From Deltaproteobacteria bacterium (lineage in GTDB: Bacteria; Myxococcota_A; Polyangia; Polyangiales; Ga0077539), in NCBI GenBank assembly GCA_947477565.1, contig CANJUR010000001.1, forward strand, positions 27,996-91,995: a stretch of DNA of 64,000 nucleotides. Direction: 5' to 3'. The notes under the pieces are model-generated. The model had not been told where the DNA came from. It saw only the letters and a program-made list of their open reading frames with translations, and made no database searches. Made by a program: the position numbers and the translations under genes. Positions 31,435 through 38,960 of this stretch are shown one piece after another (the stretch's first letter is position 1; every line of letters begins with the position of its first letter).

Positions 31435-31512
<78 letters not shown>

Positions 31513-33013: not shown

Positions 33014-33673
33014 GTGCAATGGATGGTGTTCTCCCTCCTGGTGGTCGGTAGCTCGGTTGCTTCGTTCGCTGCTCGCGAGCGACGGTTTCGGCGTCGGTGG
33101 CAAAATGTCGAACTACCCGCGATCACCGTCGGCCGCGGCGCATACCGCGAGGGGACAGCCTCCGGCGCGATGATGCCGAGCGCCCCGCTCGCCCTCCGAA
33201 TCGCCGCCCTCAGCTGCCTCGTCTACGGCCGCGGCGTGACGACGGCGCTCGTCACCACGGCGCTTTTCCTCGCGGGCCTGCCGCTGCGCGCGGTCGCGGA
33301 GACAACGCTCCACGGCCTTCTCGGCTACCTCGCGGGAGGCTACGGTTTTGGCGCCATCGCGGCGATCGTCCTCGCGGCGCTGGCCCTCGGCGCGGGCAAT
33401 GACCTGCTGTTGCGCAACCACCGCCACGCCTTCCGTCGCACGCGCAACATCGCTGTGGCATCGCTCGCGCTGCACGGGCTCGTCTGGGCGAACATCACCT
33501 TCCACGGTCACATCGTCGCAAGCTCGGCTCGAGACGTCGCGACCTCCCTCGCCCACGCACGCGTCATCGCCGCAATGGCGTTCGGGCACGCAGGGCTGAT
33601 GCTTGCGCTGGCCTACGCGTACCGGGCGCAGCTCTCGGCCCTGACGCCCGCCGAGCGCAAGTTCGAACTCTAG
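33014..33673 (+). CDS. Integral membrane protein, function unknown
   Basis: 219 aa with about 5-6 hydrophobic segments and high GC3; no motif recognised. Confidence 0.5.
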   Translation: MQWMVFSLLVVGSSVASFAARERRFRRRWQNVELPAITVGRGAYREGTASGAMMPSAPLALRIAALSCLVYGRGVTTALVTTALFLAGLPLRAVAETTLHGLLGYLAGGYGFGAIAAIVLAALALGAGNDLLLRNHRHAFRRTRNIAVASLALHGLVWANITFHGHIVASSARDVATSLAHARVIAAMAFGHAGLMLALAYAYRAQLSALTPAERKFEL

Positions 33674-33677
33674 CCAA

Positions 33678-34163
33678 TCAGCTCTTCGCGATCGCCACGT
33701 CTACGAGCGTCGGCGTGAGCAGTCCGGACAGCACCCGCGGATCAAGCCCCAACAAGAACCCACGACTGCCGCCGTTGAGGTACACGCGCGGCAGCTCGAG
33801 CACCGTGCGCTCGACGTACACCGGCATCGCGCGGCGGGTGCCCAACGGGCTCGTTCCGCCGACCTGATAGCCCGAGTGCCGATCGGCGACCTCGGGCTTG
33901 CACGCCTGGACGCTGCGCGCGCCGACGAGCCGTGCAAGTTCCCTGGTGCTCACCTCGCAGTCGCCGTGCATCAGCACCACCAGCGGGCGCTTCTGGTCGT
34001 CTTCCATCACCAGCGTCTTGATCACCGCGTGCTCGTCAACGCCCAGTTCGCGCGCCGAAACCCGGGTGCCGCCCCGGTCTTCGTAGCGGTAGAAATGTGC
34101 GGTGTAGGCAATGCCCTGCTGCTTCAGCAGGCGCGTGGCGTTGGTGCTCGGCGCGCGCTCCAT
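33678..34163 (-). CDS. ybaK: YbaK/EbsC-type Cys-tRNA(Pro) deacylase
   Basis: Start ATG 34163 (MERAPSTNATRLLKQQGIAY...). Blocks AVIKTLVM, CEVSTRELARLVG, HSGYQVGGTSPLG, VYLNGGSRG. Confidence 0.8.
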   Translation of the reverse strand: MERAPSTNATRLLKQQGIAYTAHFYRYEDRGGTRVSARELGVDEHAVIKTLVMEDDQKRPLVVLMHGDCEVSTRELARLVGARSVQACKPEVADRHSGYQVGGTSPLGTRRAMPVYVERTVLELPRVYLNGGSRGFLLGLDPRVLSGLLTPTLVDVAIAKS

Positions 34164-34170
34164 CGCTCGC

Positions 34171-35163
34171 TCACCGAGGGAAGAGGGCGACGCGCAGACC
34201 GTGGTCGGCGACCGTCGGCGCACCCGACCCACGGGTGCATTGCATCCGCATCGGAATCAGGTCCTGGTACCAACTCACCACCACCGCTGATTCACCCGCG
34301 TCCACGGAGATCCAGCGCAGACCGACCTCGCGGCCGATGGCGACCGATCCCTTCAGTTCGGCCACGTCGCGCTGCACGCGGTAAAGCTCGACGCGGGCGT
34401 CCGCGCAACTGCCGCGCGAGACCGCCGCCCAACGACCGGCGACGTCCTCCACATCGAGGCCCAGAGCAGGCTCGTAGCCCAGAAGGTCTACGCCCCGCGT
34501 CAACTCTACGTCCGCCAACAGCGCCACCGGAACCGTCCGTCGCGGCTCGACACGCAGCACGACGCTCGCCCTCGTCACCGCCGGCGCAGGCTCGATCACG
34601 CCCTCCCTCGAGCGGCGAAGCATCGACGTCAGCGCCCACTCCGACGCCGCGGCCTCCGTCGCGCTGGCTTCGCGCTCGTCTCCCGCAAACCCCGTCGAGG
34701 TCACATCAATCGCGCGCCATCCCACGCCCGCATCCCCCGCGGCACCGGGCCAGACCACTGTTGCCCCGCCGGTTCGCGGCAGCAGCGACATCGTCGACCC
34801 CGGTGGTATCCACCGCACCGGGTGACGTGCCACCACCGCCGCGCCCGAGGCGCTCCACAGCACCCAGCGCATCTCCGCGCCGGTGGCGTCCTCCGCAGGT
34901 ACCGCCACCGCGCTACGAACCTCCCCCTCGATCCAAAGCGAGGGAGAAACCGCGGCGGTGCGAGCCTCGGCGGACTGCCATGGCCCCTGCACCGCGACCA
35001 ATGGTGGCGGAGGCGGAGACGCAGTCGTCGGCGGAGGCACGTCCGTCGTCGCCACATCGACCGGAGCCACAGGCATCGGCACCCGGGGCACCCGGGGCAC
35101 CCGATGACGGCAGCCCAACACCGACGCGAGCGCCACGGCGAGCACGGAGACCCGAAGGTTCAT
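34171..35163 (-). CDS. Lipoprotein, function unknown
   Basis: ATG 35163 gives MNLRVSVLAVALASVLGC (lipobox), then (RVP)x3 and a Pro-rich linker. ATGA overlap with the upstream formyltransferase-like gene; ends 7 nt before ybaK. Confidence 0.6.
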   Translation of the reverse strand: MNLRVSVLAVALASVLGCRHRVPRVPRVPMPVAPVDVATTDVPPPTTASPPPPPLVAVQGPWQSAEARTAAVSPSLWIEGEVRSAVAVPAEDATGAEMRWVLWSASGAAVVARHPVRWIPPGSTMSLLPRTGGATVVWPGAAGDAGVGWRAIDVTSTGFAGDEREASATEAAASEWALTSMLRRSREGVIEPAPAVTRASVVLRVEPRRTVPVALLADVELTRGVDLLGYEPALGLDVEDVAGRWAAVSRGSCADARVELYRVQRDVAELKGSVAIGREVGLRWISVDAGESAVVVSWYQDLIPMRMQCTRGSGAPTVADHGLRVALFPR

Positions 35164-36068
35164 CCGTCTACCCTGAGCAGGCCGGGGAGCAGCCCCGCAA
35201 TGCGTTCGCCGGTCACTACGGTGTCGTCCTCTTCGCTCCGCGCTCGCGTGAGCAACACGGCCTCGCCGTCGCCGCACGCCACCACCACGCCGCTCGGTAG
35301 CCACGCCACGTCGCCCGGCTCAAGGCCGCGCGGCGGGTTGGGAAAAGGCTCGGCTTCGAGCACCACGAGGGTTCCCTCGCCCAGGCCCGTGAAGGCCCCG
35401 GGGTCGGGTGAGGCCGCCCGGATGCGGGCGATCACCCGCGACGCTGGATGATCCCAGAGGATCTCGCAGTCATCGTCCGTAGGCCGCGGAGCCTCCGTCG
35501 CGCGGGCACTATCTTGAGGCGTCCCAGGGTCGGTGTACTTCCCCTCGGCGATGCCGCGCACCACGTCGCGCACGGCCTCCAGCGAGGGTCGGTCGAGCGC
35601 GCGCGCGAGCATCCATGCATTGCCCCGCGGCGGCACCGGCACACGGCGCTGCAGGAGTATCGGCCCGCTGTCATACGCATCCGTGATGCGGTGCACGGTC
35701 ACCCCGGTCTCGGCGTCTTCCCGGTAGAGCGTCCAGAAGTACGGATCGGCCCCGCGGTGCCGCGGGAGAAGCGAGGGGTGCACGTTGATGCCACCGTGCG
35801 GCGCCAGCGCGATGAGCGGCGCAGGAATGCGTCGCGTCCAGAACCAGCTGACGATCAGGTCGGGCTCCGTCGAGGCGAGCAGCGCCTGCACGCTGGGCTG
35901 GGTGACGTCGGGCCGCGCCAGGAGCGGTGCACCGGTCTCCGCGAGCGCGCGTCGCAGACGGGAGATACCCGGTGAATTGGGGCGCGAAATGCACGCGCCG
36001 ACGAGTTGATAGCCTTCGCGCAGGAGCATCAGGGCGCCGAGCGGCATGCCCAGGTAGAGAATCCTCAT
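35160..36068 (-). CDS. Formyltransferase family protein (Fmt/ArnA-N-like paralogue with Formyl_trans_C-like tail)
   Basis: ATG 36068 (MRILYLGMPLGA...). Catalytic block GGINVHPSLLPRHRGADP plus DSGPIL. The Fmt-type N-terminal PDRPAGRGKK loop is not evident. No def/rsmB neighbours. Confidence 0.7.
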   Translation of the reverse strand: MRILYLGMPLGALMLLREGYQLVGACISRPNSPGISRLRRALAETGAPLLARPDVTQPSVQALLASTEPDLIVSWFWTRRIPAPLIALAPHGGINVHPSLLPRHRGADPYFWTLYREDAETGVTVHRITDAYDSGPILLQRRVPVPPRGNAWMLARALDRPSLEAVRDVVRGIAEGKYTDPGTPQDSARATEAPRPTDDDCEILWDHPASRVIARIRAASPDPGAFTGLGEGTLVVLEAEPFPNPPRGLEPGDVAWLPSGVVVACGDGEAVLLTRARSEEDDTVVTGERIAGLLPGLLRVDG

Positions 36069-37720
36069 GGTTCGTTTCCCCCGAAGGTGTAGAGCCCCCA
36101 GGGGACCAGTTCGGCGAACGGACACTCGCCTCCCAGCACCCTTGGCTCAAGCGCGCGATCGGGCTCCGCCGCGCCCAGGTCAGCCATCAACAACAGCGCC
36201 GTGCGGCCGCCGAATCCCCCCGCCAGGGAGCGCATCGCGACCAGGGCATTTTGCTCCGCGCGGAGCACCGCGTCTTCGAGCGAACCCGGCTCCGCGAGCG
36301 CCTGAGCATAGGGAGTGAGCCGCGTCGCCTCGGATCCCCCGAGGGCCACTCGCGACGACGACTGCGCCGCCGTCGAAGCCGCCGCGAGCGAGCGCGTCAC
36401 GCCGCCCTCGATGCGACGAAAACCGAGCGGCGCCAGCACTCGCGACTCCAGCCGCGCCATCAGGTCAACGCGAAGCCCGGGGAGAATCCACCAGGCCGAC
36501 GCTCGCGCGGACTCTTCTTCCGCCACGCGCCGCAGCCGCGCAGTCCACCCCGCGGGGTTGTCGGACTCGCCGCGCACCGCGGTCCAGGCCGTGCGCAGTT
36601 CGATCAACGCCGCGCGGGTCGCGAGCTTCATTCGTTCGGAGGGCTCGCCCAGGGACGAACCCCGCGCCAGCGTGTCGCGTAGCCAGGGAAGTTGCATCGG
36701 CCCGGCCACGAAGCGGGCCACGAAGGCGTCACGGTCGGGTGCCGGGTGCGTGCGAAGCGAGCGGATTTCCGGGAGAAGCGCGATGACCCGTACGGAGCTG
36801 GACAAGATCGTACGCCATCGAACGATCTCCCTCGCATCGACCGGCGCGGCGGAGGGCGGAATCGACGGTGACCGCACCGGGGCCTCGGCCGCACGGGACC
36901 AATCGAGAGCCGCGGGCTCGGGCACGAGCGGCGGCGTAAGGGGAGAGGAGAATACGACTACGGTGTCGTCGTCGACGCGGTCATCGGTCGGGTCCGGGAG
37001 GTCGAGCCAGCCGAAGACCGCACGGGTGAGCGCGTCGGGACTGAACGACCGCCCGGCGAGTGAAGAGACCAGCGAGGCCGGGTCGCGGGTGACCGTCGGC
37101 GGTGCGCCAAGGTTTACGTGTTGGGTAAAACCGTCCCGGAGCGCGGGGGCGAGCGCGGGGATCCCGGCAGCGGAGGCGGCGGAGGCGGAGGCGACCACGG
37201 AGAGAGCGCGCTCTCCGCAAGCGGCCAGGAGCGCGGCAAACTCGGCGACGCCAGCTTCGTCGGCGCGTCGGCCACGGCGATCGATCTGCCGATGCAGTTC
37301 GTCAACGACCAGTACGAGGCCGGAGTGGCCCACGGTGCGTGCGCGGAAGATCCAGCCACCGAGGTGGCGCAGGAGACCGCCACCGCGATCGTCGTAGAGA
37401 CCGCCCGGCGCGCGGGCCTGTGTGAGCGCGAACTCCACAGCGTCGTGGATGCGCGCGACGATTTCCTGCATGGGGGCATCGCCCGGGCGGAGTCGCACAA
37501 CCAGTGGCGGGTTCGTCTCGGCACTCAGGGAGCGGGCGATGTCGTCGAGGTGACCGACGCGCACGGCGCGGGAGCCGCCGACGAGAAGCAGGGTGGCTCC
37601 GCCGTCGGGCCGAGGACGCAGGGACTCCGAAGACGGTACGGGGGCGCTCACGAGAACGGCGCGCAGGGTAGAGGGCGTGGGCCCACCGTCGCAAGGGCAA
37701 CGACGAACTGGATTGTCCAT
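36065..37720 (-). CDS. Hypothetical 551-aa protein with a degenerate P-loop-NTPase-like N-terminus
   Basis: ATG 37720 (MDNPVRR...). TLLLVGGSRAVRVGH sits where a Walker A would be, and LVLVVDELH is Walker-B-like. The rest is unrecognised. ATGA overlap with the downstream formyltransferase-like gene. Confidence 0.5.
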   Translation of the reverse strand: MDNPVRRCPCDGGPTPSTLRAVLVSAPVPSSESLRPRPDGGATLLLVGGSRAVRVGHLDDIARSLSAETNPPLVVRLRPGDAPMQEIVARIHDAVEFALTQARAPGGLYDDRGGGLLRHLGGWIFRARTVGHSGLVLVVDELHRQIDRRGRRADEAGVAEFAALLAACGERALSVVASASAASAAGIPALAPALRDGFTQHVNLGAPPTVTRDPASLVSSLAGRSFSPDALTRAVFGWLDLPDPTDDRVDDDTVVVFSSPLTPPLVPEPAALDWSRAAEAPVRSPSIPPSAAPVDAREIVRWRTILSSSVRVIALLPEIRSLRTHPAPDRDAFVARFVAGPMQLPWLRDTLARGSSLGEPSERMKLATRAALIELRTAWTAVRGESDNPAGWTARLRRVAEEESARASAWWILPGLRVDLMARLESRVLAPLGFRRIEGGVTRSLAAASTAAQSSSRVALGGSEATRLTPYAQALAEPGSLEDAVLRAEQNALVAMRSLAGGFGGRTALLLMADLGAAEPDRALEPRVLGGECPFAELVPWGLYTFGGNEP

Positions 37721-37750
37721 CGGACCAGCGCTCCCGTAACATTGGGGTCC

Positions 37751-38167
37751 ATGGCGATGACTCAGCCTCCTACCTTGCGGACCATCCGGGTCGTGGCCGC
37801 GGTGATCGAGCGTGACGGCCGATACCTCATCACCCAGCGGCGTCCGACGGCAGTTCTGCCTCTTTTGTGGGAGTTTCCGGGAGGGAGGGTCGAGGAGGCG
37901 GAGTCGGACTCCGCGGCGCTGCGGCGCGAGTTGCGCCACCGGCTCGACGCGGACATCGATGTCGGGGCGCTGATCTCCTTCGTGACGCACACCTACGAGA
38001 CCTACTCCGTAGACCTGCACCTATACGATTGCGACCTTCTGGGCGACGGTCTGCGGGCCGCGGCCGTCAACGCCTTCGAGTGGGTCAGTTCAGCGGACTT
38101 TGAGCACTACCCCTTCACGCCCGCAGACGAGGCCTCGATGGCTCGACTGTTGGGCGTCGATGGCTGA
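37751..38167 (+). CDS. Nudix (MutT-like) hydrolase-fold protein with a degenerate Nudix box
   Basis: IRVVAAVIERDGRYLITQRR....LWEFPGGRVEEAESDSAALRRELRHRLDADI. The GX5EX7REUX part is present, but the usual EE-x-G is H-R-x-D. Confidence 0.75.
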   Translation: MAMTQPPTLRTIRVVAAVIERDGRYLITQRRPTAVLPLLWEFPGGRVEEAESDSAALRRELRHRLDADIDVGALISFVTHTYETYSVDLHLYDCDLLGDGLRAAAVNAFEWVSSADFEHYPFTPADEASMARLLGVDG

Positions 38168-38960
38168 TTCTGCGCCCGGTACCCACCTCCCCCATATGGC
38201 GTCCTCAATGAAGCAGTGCACGGTTTGTGGCGCGCCGATGCCGCCTGGAGAGGGGGTCTGCGGTCATTGCGGTCGCGCCCATTACGCCGCGACCTGCGAG
38301 CACTGCGACCAGCCGGCTCCGACCCTCGTCCGCGGAGGCACGGTGATCTGCTCCGGATGCGGCGGCACTCGCGGTCCCCTTTCCAGCGTGCCGCTCAACC
38401 TGGTGGGATCGGCGCATCGCGTCGGCGGCGTGCTCACCAGCGTGCTCGCCTGGGCGGTGCTCCTCGGAGGCATCGCCTTCGGTGGGCTCGTCGGCGTGGT
38501 GGTCGCGCTTTTAGCAGCAGCGCTCAGCGTGTCCGCCTGGGTGGGCTTCGGCACCGGTGTCTTGCTCGGTGGCATCGCGGCTCTCACCGGGCTGCTGCTC
38601 CTCTCGGTGAGCCGACGGCTCCGGGCGCACGGCGTCGCGGCCCAGGATTCCGCAACGGAGCAGGCCATCCTGGCGATGGCGGTCTCTCGCAAGGGGGTGC
38701 TGACCACCACCGAGGTGGCGCAAAACCTCCGACTGCCCCTGCGAGATGCCGACCGACTGCTCTCGTCGATGAGCGAGCAGGGCCGGGCGCAGCTTGAGGT
38801 CAACGGCGAGGGGTTGCTGCAATACACCTTCCGCGGGATGTCCCTCGGCGAGCGCACGGGCGTGCGTATAGACAGCTCCGACCCTGCGGCGGAGGCGCGA
38901 GCGCGGGTCGATGAGGAGTTCGAGGCGATGTCGGCGCGGCACCGTGAGGGGCGTTTCTGA
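38160..38960 (+). CDS. Double zinc-ribbon / multi-TM / C-terminal winged-helix-like protein
   Basis: CTVCGAPM...CGHCG and CEHCD...CSGCGG motifs; about 3 hydrophobic segments; C-terminus AVSRKGVLTTTEVAQNLRLPLRDADRLLSSMSEQGRAQLEV. Overlaps the Nudix gene by 8 nt. Confidence 0.55.
   Translation: MADSAPGTHLPHMASSMKQCTVCGAPMPPGEGVCGHCGRAHYAATCEHCDQPAPTLVRGGTVICSGCGGTRGPLSSVPLNLVGSAHRVGGVLTSVLAWAVLLGGIAFGGLVGVVVALLAAALSVSAWVGFGTGVLLGGIAALTGLLLLSVSRRLRAHGVAAQDSATEQAILAMAVSRKGVLTTTEVAQNLRLPLRDADRLLSSMSEQGRAQLEVNGEGLLQYTFRGMSLGERTGVRIDSSDPAAEARARVDEEFEAMSARHREGRF

Follow-up and report, generated by a model that had tools for sequence, protein, structure and literature searches.

A formyltransferase paralogue and its lineage-restricted neighbours in the Polyangiales

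We analysed a 64,000-nucleotide stretch (the window) of contig CANJUR010000001.1 from the Deltaproteobacteria bacterium assembly GCA_947477565.1, a member of the order Polyangiales. The window corresponds to C1:27996-91995 in our contig numbering; the genome spans 6.65 Mb in 252 contigs, and the G+C content of the window is ~70%. A sequence-only reading of the window had proposed that four co-directional minus-strand open reading frames, here named A, B, C and D, form a single functional unit with two products acting on aminoacyl-tRNA. We found that B is a true paralogue of the methionyl-tRNA formyltransferase Fmt, distinct from the Fmt of the cell, and that its stable partner is a Nudix protein encoded just outside the four genes. 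The locus is an uncharacterised, lineage-restricted elaboration of this conserved Polyangiales gene pair, each part of which comes from a known superfamily. D (ybaK) is a recent neighbour that lies outside the conserved module.

Gene content and conservation of the locus

The features of the locus, in window coordinates, are as follows.
36065..37720, minus strand: gene A, a two-domain AAA+/PglZ-like protein of 551 residues (ATG at 37720) or 528 residues (GTG at 37651); no Pfam family, AlphaFold2 (AF2) model
37106..37648, minus strand: A residues ~25-205 (fold matches over residues 20-205), ORC/Cdc6/BrxC-like AAA+ domain, from VIA-align
36569..36835, minus strand: A residues ~296-384, helical bundle linker, from the secondary structure of the model; only generic helical-bundle matches
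36068..36568, minus strand: A residues ~385-551, PglZ/alkaline-phosphatase-like domain with the catalytic residues replaced, from VIA-align, profile search and motif comparison
35160..36068, minus strand: gene B, a 302-residue formyltransferase paralogue (ArnA-N/Fmt-like), Formyl_trans_N plus Formyl_trans_C
34171..35163, minus strand: gene C, a 330-residue lipoprotein, predicted beta-propeller, from signal peptide, lipobox and AF2 model
33678..34163, minus strand: gene D, a YbaK-type trans-editing deacylase, tRNA_edit and TIGR00011
37751..38167, plus strand: MutT-like Nudix gene (NUDIX_4 in Pfam), divergent, with an atypical Nudix box

The frames of all four minus-strand genes are backed by codon-position GC. 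Rereading of the junctions returned the same coordinates that the sequence-only reading had given. A and B overlap by an ATGA at 36065-36068 (A stop 'cca tga gga', B start 'atg agg'), B and C overlap by another at 35160-35163 (B stop 'gga tga', C start 'atg aac'), and the TGA stop of C is followed by 7 nucleotides (gcgagcg) and then by the ybaK ATG at 34163. A convergent gene lies 4 nucleotides beyond the end of D. The genes in and around the locus encode the Nudix protein, the formyltransferase, the lipoprotein, YbaK, SurE, a phosphoribosyltransferase and a glycoside hydrolase family 3 (GH3) enzyme.

The start of A is ambiguous. The GTG start gives 528 residues, which is the length of several database orthologues, and residues 1 to 25 of the longer form are predicted to be disordered. 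The gap between A and the Nudix gene is 30 nucleotides with the ATG start and ~100 nucleotides with the GTG start; because only 30 nucleotides would separate the two genes in the former case, their divergent promoters would need to sit within coding sequence (window 37652-37750). A scan of positions 33400-38300 detected zero promoter-like sites and two terminator-like sites, the latter no more than expected by chance.

In order to determine how far the arrangement is conserved, the locus was compared with relatives labelled Polyangiales, Myxococcales or Deltaproteobacteria, which are metagenome-assembled genomes throughout. We refer to the family of the source genome, which is uncultured, as f1 and to its genus as g1. 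Within f1, the order of A, B, C and the Nudix gene was scored in 16 loci and the presence of C in another set of 19 loci that partly overlaps the first; the counts of overlapping junctions rest on approximate start calls. A was found in 22 of 24 sampled f1 genomes, across 10 genera, and is single copy in the source genome. No A was detected in the 16 other families of the order that were sampled. B directly follows A in 16/16 loci, with a 4-nucleotide overlap in about nine, and C follows B in 11/16, about six of these B-C junctions being 4-nucleotide overlaps. In 12 of the 16, the Nudix gene and A diverge. In the second set, C was present in 12/19 loci and was missing from one clade (L045-L049).

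The distribution of B is much wider than that of A. With B-type genes called at E < 1e-40 (40-50% identity), a threshold that the Fmt of the source genome itself misses, they were detected in 66 of 121 Polyangiales genomes and in 15 of 24 families. In 12 of 20 non-f1 loci (L065, L066, L068, L069, L071, L072, L074, L075, L076, L078, L079 and L080), an orthologue of the Nudix gene (62-70% identity) sits right next to B in divergent orientation, with no gene intervening, and both A and C were absent from all 20. This head-to-head Nudix/B pair, separated by a gap of only tens of bases, occurs in at least 10 Polyangiales families. The partner that accompanies B across the order is therefore the Nudix gene, which the sequence-only reading had left outside its four-gene unit.

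The canonical Nudix box is REUxEExGU. The box found here reads RE[LVM]x[H/E]RL[G/D], and its second Glu is replaced by Arg in 24/24 orthologues examined (L017-L031 and L065-L080). The first Glu is His in f1 and remains Glu in most other families (it is His in one, L072).

The linkage of ybaK is more restricted. The gene adjoins C only in G000-G005 and G008, all of which belong to g1. In G007, another g1 genome, as well as in G009, G010, G012, G013 and G014, A and ybaK are on separate contigs, and in G007 the gene that follows comes immediately after C. Since linkage is found only within part of g1, ybaK is a recent arrival at the locus. Within f1, conservation of the neighbourhood thus holds for the A-B order and fails for ybaK, and with it goes the notion of a four-gene functional unit. 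This carries a methodological caution, in that the start-stop overlaps lent ybaK the look of a system member, and comparative data identified it as a recent neighbour.

D probably is a YbaK, as the sequence-only reading had already named it. The protein scored 86.7 bits on tRNA_edit (cut-off, 25.5) and 151.4 bits on TIGR00011, the model for the YbaK Cys-tRNA(Pro) deacylase. The latter match spans the model (positions 1-151 of 152) and falls 2 bits short of the cut-off of 153.25, which has no bearing on the module because ybaK is not conserved at this locus. The orthologues in relatives exceed that cut-off with 158-176 bits. YbaK edits mischarged tRNA-Pro. A lone tRNA-Pro(GGG) gene is located at window 31435-31512 (plus strand), ~2.2 kb from ybaK.

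The formyltransferase paralogue

Pfam analysis of B found Formyl_trans_N followed by Formyl_trans_C, in agreement with the formyltransferase and Formyl_trans_C-like tail recognised from the sequence. The genome encodes three Formyl_trans_N genes: B, a copy on contig C3 with a full-domain match, which we take to be purN, and a canonical fmt on contig C57. The canonical gene (C57:13249-14145) is directly downstream of def (C57:14245-14700), and its product scored 271.7 bits on TIGR00460, the Fmt model, for which the equivalog cut-off is 201.5 bits. B reached 112.4 bits on the same model, below that cut-off, and there is no def near it, as the sequence-only reading had noted. The separate def-fmt pair on C57 makes B a paralogue, so B is not the only fmt-like gene available to the cell.

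Comparison of B with the Fmt of the same genome (31% identity) showed that 8 residues are missing from B where Fmt has its tRNA-recognition loop ('VGRGNVVTAPP'). The insertion loop of the Fmt N-terminal domain contacts the tRNA acceptor arm, as established for the Escherichia coli enzyme. The absence of this loop, suspected earlier from an alignment made by hand, is thus borne out against the cell's own enzyme. The net charge of the C-terminal domain is -11 in B and -5 to -12 in its f1 orthologues, whereas a hand count of the same region of the cell's own Fmt gives about +3. In summary, B shares the superfamily and domain order of Fmt (TIGR00460) but differs from it in its score, its missing tRNA loop, its acidic C-terminal domain and its distance from def.

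Among solved structures, the best match of B was the formyltransferase domain of ArnA (121.7 bits), compared with 87.2 bits for the best Fmt; sugar N-formyltransferases also were among the matches. The N-terminal domain of ArnA formylates UDP-4-amino-4-deoxy-L-arabinose, and its structures (2bln, 1yrw and 1z7e) align over residues 14-293 with residues 10-291 of B. The two share a two-domain layout with an Fmt-like C-terminal domain, the 'HxSLLP' catalytic block and the catalytic Asp, and ArnA lacks the Fmt tRNA loop just as B does. Unlike bifunctional ArnA, B is a stand-alone protein of 302 residues with no fused decarboxylase, there are no arn genes in the locus, and the first loop of B carries a 4-residue deletion. 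The equivalog cut-off for ArnA is meant for the bifunctional protein of 649 positions, and B stays far short of it.

The window protein has the complete catalytic set (N95, H97 and D133). Two of these residues, H97 and D133, do not vary among 24 B-family sequences, and B probably is an active formyltransferase. The missing tRNA loop, ArnA as the best solved sequence match and the acidic C-terminal domain together suggest that B is not directed at tRNA, and its substrate most likely is something else. The earlier theme of two products acting on aminoacyl-tRNA therefore is not supported for B, which scores higher against the ArnA domain than against any solved Fmt (121.7 versus at most 87.2 bits) and acidic in the region compared. 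The Joint Genome Institute (JGI) database names many B orthologues methionyl-tRNA formyltransferase, and such database names are automatic. The Polyangiales thus appear to carry a widely conserved second, non-Fmt formyltransferase that is routinely mis-annotated as methionyl-tRNA formyltransferase.

The two-domain protein A and the lipoprotein C

A matched no Pfam, NCBIfam or PADLOC family, and Pfam searches with A and 24 orthologues gave no match even at E values up to 1. An AF2 model was built from 24 orthologues, with a mean confidence score (pLDDT) of 80.5. Foldseek searches with the whole model returned a mixture of AAA+ and PorX matches at low template modelling (TM) scores, and the domain assignment came from VIA-align. 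When the A profile was compared with the sequences of the Protein Data Bank, only coiled coils were found.

The N-terminal domain superposed on 5uj7_C (Z 12.9; root mean square deviation [rmsd], 3.3; 161 residues aligned), 1w5s_A (Z 12.8) and the BrxC entries 9zll_A (Z 12.0) and 9zdx_A (Z 11.8). It therefore has the fold of the BrxC and ORC/Cdc6 AAA+ ATPases (Z 12-13), together with their acidic Walker B pair (D140 and E141), position 140 being Asp or Glu and position 141 Glu or Asp in 23 of 24 sequences. Unlike those ATPases, the domain is ~180 residues long and has neither a winged-helix region nor the long C-terminal region of BrxC. Its Walker A motif also is altered. The segment reads G48-[GA]-[TS]-x-A-x-R54-x with no GK[ST]; an invariant Arg (R54) occupies the position of the Walker A Lys, and the preceding Gly and following Ser/Thr are absent. 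The ruined Walker A and intact Walker-B-like site described in the sequence-only reading are thus both evident. Structure prediction added what that reading had missed, namely, a degenerate PglZ-like domain at the C terminus.

By VIA-align, this C-terminal domain matched PorX (7pv7_D; Z 13.4, 236 aligned, rmsd 6.3) and the PglZ of a bacteriophage exclusion (BREX) system (9zn5_D; Z 13.1, 242 aligned, rmsd 4.2), and PorX also was among the Foldseek matches of the model. A profile search of 1.84 billion proteins with A returned ~24 orthologue-level matches and ~250 further clusters (at 50% identity) of 450-1800 residues, which matched mainly through the C-terminal domain; two remote clusters that were checked, P0070 and P0051, match the N-terminal domain too. 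From A, the search reaches proteins with canonical PglZ motifs at E values of 1e-22 to 1e-12. The remote relatives inspected gave weak PglZ matches, and most carry no confident Pfam annotation. Two of them, P0131 and P0164, are ~1800 residues long with a canonical Walker A, and BrxC models are matched by P0131 and by the 1365-residue P0097.

Many of the remote relatives retain the canonical motifs LVDGxRFD, LPTTT, GDHGF and GGASPEEVLVP, and in these canonical relatives D40, T78, D174 and H175 are invariant. Their profile aligns with Flavobacterium PorX such that the invariant Thr (T78) falls on PorX T271, the residue altered in the phosphatase-null T271V mutant (entry 8thp). Substitution of the equivalent Thr (T538A) abolishes the activity of the PglZ of E. 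fergusonii (bioRxiv 10.1101/2025.03.26.645558). Every member of the A family has T, P or S at the position of the motif I Asp and V, L, A or R at that of the motif III His; only the motif III Asp survives. The Thr stretch of motif II is missing from A in g1, with P-x-T left in some other genera.

The C-terminal domain of A thus shares the fold of the PglZ proteins (BREX PglZ and PorX, the response regulator of the type IX secretion system [T9SS]) and is linked by profile to canonical DGxRxD, PTTT, GDHGF and GGASPEEVLVP proteins. It differs from them in the replaced motif I Asp and motif III His, and the PADLOC PglZ models, Pfam PF08665 and the NCBIfam PglZ model all failed to match it. In addition, A lacks the receiver domain that PorX has, and the partners that accompany PglZ in BREX are missing. 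Both halves of A, ATPase and PglZ, appear to be inactive judging from these residues. Because A lacks the defining catalytic features of both the PglZ and the P-loop ATPase families, it is best called PglZ-like and BrxC-like by fold and assigned to neither family. Most likely it is a pseudoenzyme that was inserted between the Nudix gene and B.

Conservation of A argues for a non-catalytic role rather than decay, as 28 positions are invariant and 36 near-invariant across 24 sequences that are only 30-40% identical overall. A complex of A (residues 24-551) with B was predicted with alignments; the score was 0.00 in a run with no controls, which speaks neither for nor against contact.

PglZ and BrxC-like domains have been studied almost only in phage defence and PorX signalling. 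A, on the other hand, is a single-copy, predicted catalytically dead PglZ-like protein that sits in a housekeeping-type neighbourhood across f1, with a metabolic enzyme as its translationally coupled partner, and it derives from a family of ~250 unannotated clusters, many with canonical PglZ motifs. A search of the source genome for a canonical paralogue of the P0051 type found none. Two loci of PglZ-like relatives (L051 and L052) have non-defence contexts, one of them beside purH. A 686-residue protein upstream of the B homologue in L055 was considered as a relative of A and proved unrelated.

C has a signal peptide ending in 'SVLGC', and its lipobox Cys18 is invariant in 12 orthologues, in keeping with its earlier description as an exported lipoprotein. 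Two further Cys residues (C253 and C309) also are invariant. Pfam, NCBIfam and PADLOC searches with C gave nothing usable. The AF2 model (pLDDT 83.1) is an all-beta propeller that superposes on the sialidase NanA (Z 12.2), rhamnose-glucuronate lyase (Z 12.2) and WD40 propellers (Z 10-11.7); Foldseek recovered generic propellers only, at TM ~0.3. Identity to sialidase/BNR and other beta-propellers is 5-12% and the rmsd 4.3-4.6 Å, with sialidase and WD40 proteins tied. Catalytic residues could not be mapped onto C, and on this model it would share only the general propeller fold with sialidases and WD40 proteins.

Interpretation of the locus

The reading that we favour, to which we give about an even chance, is that B N-formylates a non-tRNA substrate and that an old Nudix/B pair was joined by A and C in f1, with ybaK arriving later in g1. 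The most parsimonious history, given that the Nudix/B pair occurs across many families of the order, A and C only in f1 and linked ybaK only in part of g1, would have three steps. The pair would have been present head to head across the Polyangiales; A would then have been inserted and C added in the f1 ancestor, both coupled translationally to B; and finally ybaK would have been inserted within g1, where its product would do its usual job independently.

Mechanistically, B would use 10-formyl-tetrahydrofolate to N-formylate an amino group of its substrate, and we would guess first at an amino sugar activated by a nucleotide, or at some related molecule linked to one. The substrates of Nudix enzymes are nucleoside-diphosphate-linked molecules. 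The closeness of B to ArnA, its acidic C-terminal domain, the Nudix partner and a recurring neighbour that resembles phosphomannose isomerase (PMI) all favour such a compound. The last is a PMI-type cupin with a weak PMI_typeI_cat match, encoded downstream of B in 5/8 other-family loci at the following positions.
L065:3903-4958, PMI-type cupin after B
L071:5875-7308, PMI-type cupin after B
L075:5895-7436, PMI-type cupin after B
L078:6292-7371, PMI-type cupin after B
L079:3505-4602, PMI-type cupin after B

A would be descended from Myxococcota proteins with P-loop-like and PglZ domains. With the PglZ metal and nucleophile residues lost and the Walker A crippled, its part would be limited to that of a binding, scaffolding or regulatory subunit. 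C, as a periplasmic beta-propeller lipoprotein, may bind or process an envelope product. The analysis establishes the order of the genes, their distribution among lineages, the folds, the motif losses and the presence of a separate def-fmt pair; the substrate class of B, any physical contact between A and B, and the role of C are inferred. Identifying the substrate of B would close a gap in the one-carbon or envelope biochemistry of myxobacteria.

Several observations weigh against this reading. The scores of B on the ArnA, PRK06988 and fmt models of NCBIfam are nearly equal (123.2, 117.5 and 112.4 bits) and all under the respective equivalog cut-offs, so that the substrate is not assignable from sequence alone, and N95 is replaced by Gly in 7/24 B-family sequences. 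No aminotransferase, dehydratase, decarboxylase, glycosyltransferase or flippase genes are found in the locus, which leaves the sugar interpretation with no pathway context here. The PMI-like matches are weak (20-33 bits), and the PMI orthologue of the source genome (~50-56% identity) is unlinked (C10:4523-5563). In family f17 and in L056, a DHH-family phosphoesterase gene lies directly upstream of B (L062:5867-7234, L064:3835-4986 and L056:4807-5967), and a nucleotide or oligonucleotide substrate would fit such a neighbour as well as a sugar would. Tight spacing alone is no proof of a functional or physical link among A, B and C, and the relatives all are metagenome-assembled.

The strongest competitor is that the genes form one transcription unit with no common function, A being a decaying or orphan protein and C an unrelated envelope lipoprotein. 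We regard this as unlikely, though deserving of serious weight. The neighbours of B do change from family to family (PMI-like, DHH, CstA, amidase and a ~1650-residue protein), C is missing from the f1 clade L045-L049, and the complex prediction, having given no verdict, lends no support to an A-B complex. Against it, the A-B order is kept in all 16 f1 loci despite the 30-40% identity of A, the 4-nucleotide overlaps recur at about nine A-B and about six B-C junctions (on approximate starts), and the ~28 invariant residues across 24 A sequences are unlike decay.

A bolder extension of the favoured reading, which we advance as a conjecture and would not expect to hold, is that A is a domesticated pseudoenzyme of shared ancestry with the BrxC-like AAA+ and PglZ lineage of BREX defence that, after losing its ATPase and phosphodiesterase chemistry, serves as a nucleotide-sensing regulatory subunit of the formyltransferase and, with the atypical Nudix protein and the propeller lipoprotein C, controls an undescribed N-formylated envelope component in f1. 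A literature search found no paper on a Nudix-formyltransferase pair or on a PglZ-like partner of a formyltransferase, which agrees with the earlier remark that no system of this composition has been described.

There is a slim chance that B is directed at tRNA after all, as a second such formyltransferase that works independently of YbaK and acts on a non-initiator aminoacyl-tRNA or under special conditions, with A, C and the Nudix gene as unrelated passengers. Such a role would suit the Formyl_trans_C domain common to B and Fmt, the JGI names of many orthologues and the closeness of the fmt and ArnA model scores. ArnA has the same C-terminal domain, however, so Formyl_trans_C is not specific to tRNA, and the database names are automatic. 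The fmt score of 112.4 bits against a cut-off of 201.5, the absent tRNA loop and the charge of -11 against about +3 (hand count) in the cell's own Fmt all tell against this role.

We consider it very improbable that the four genes constitute a module for aminoacyl-tRNA-dependent modification or for quality control of translation, with B and YbaK acting on related aminoacyl-tRNA substrates. The Fmt-type two-domain architecture of B with its 112 bits on the fmt model, the position of ybaK 7 nucleotides downstream of C and the tRNA-Pro(GGG) gene 2.2 kb away would accord with such a module, but G007 and five other genera have ybaK elsewhere in the genome, B has no tRNA loop and an acidic C-terminal domain, and the conserved partner of B is a Nudix gene rather than a tRNA enzyme.

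Finally, we give hardly any credence to the idea that A, as a fusion of PglZ with a BrxC-like ATPase, is what remains of a BREX-like anti-phage system or a minimal form of one, located in a defence island: the structural matches of A do include BREX BrxC and PglZ entries, and its remote relatives include the BrxC-PglZ fusions P0131 and P0164 of ~1800 residues, but BREX defence places PglX and other BREX genes beside PglZ/BrxC, and at this locus there is neither a PglX methyltransferase nor any other BREX gene, no PADLOC model matches A, its catalytic residues are lost, and it is single copy with the same neighbourhood among housekeeping genes throughout the family.

Some further neighbours were noted. 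A gene for a Zn-ribbon membrane protein (38100..38960, plus strand; weak DZR and Zn_Ribbon_1 matches, and synteny by tblastn) is located downstream of the Nudix gene in the window, and it often lies behind the Nudix gene in the Nudix/B loci of other families as well. In family f11, a ~1650-residue protein is encoded directly upstream of B (L070:5845-10779 and L077:24-4997), and in L056, B is followed by a gene whose product has a weak PilZ domain.

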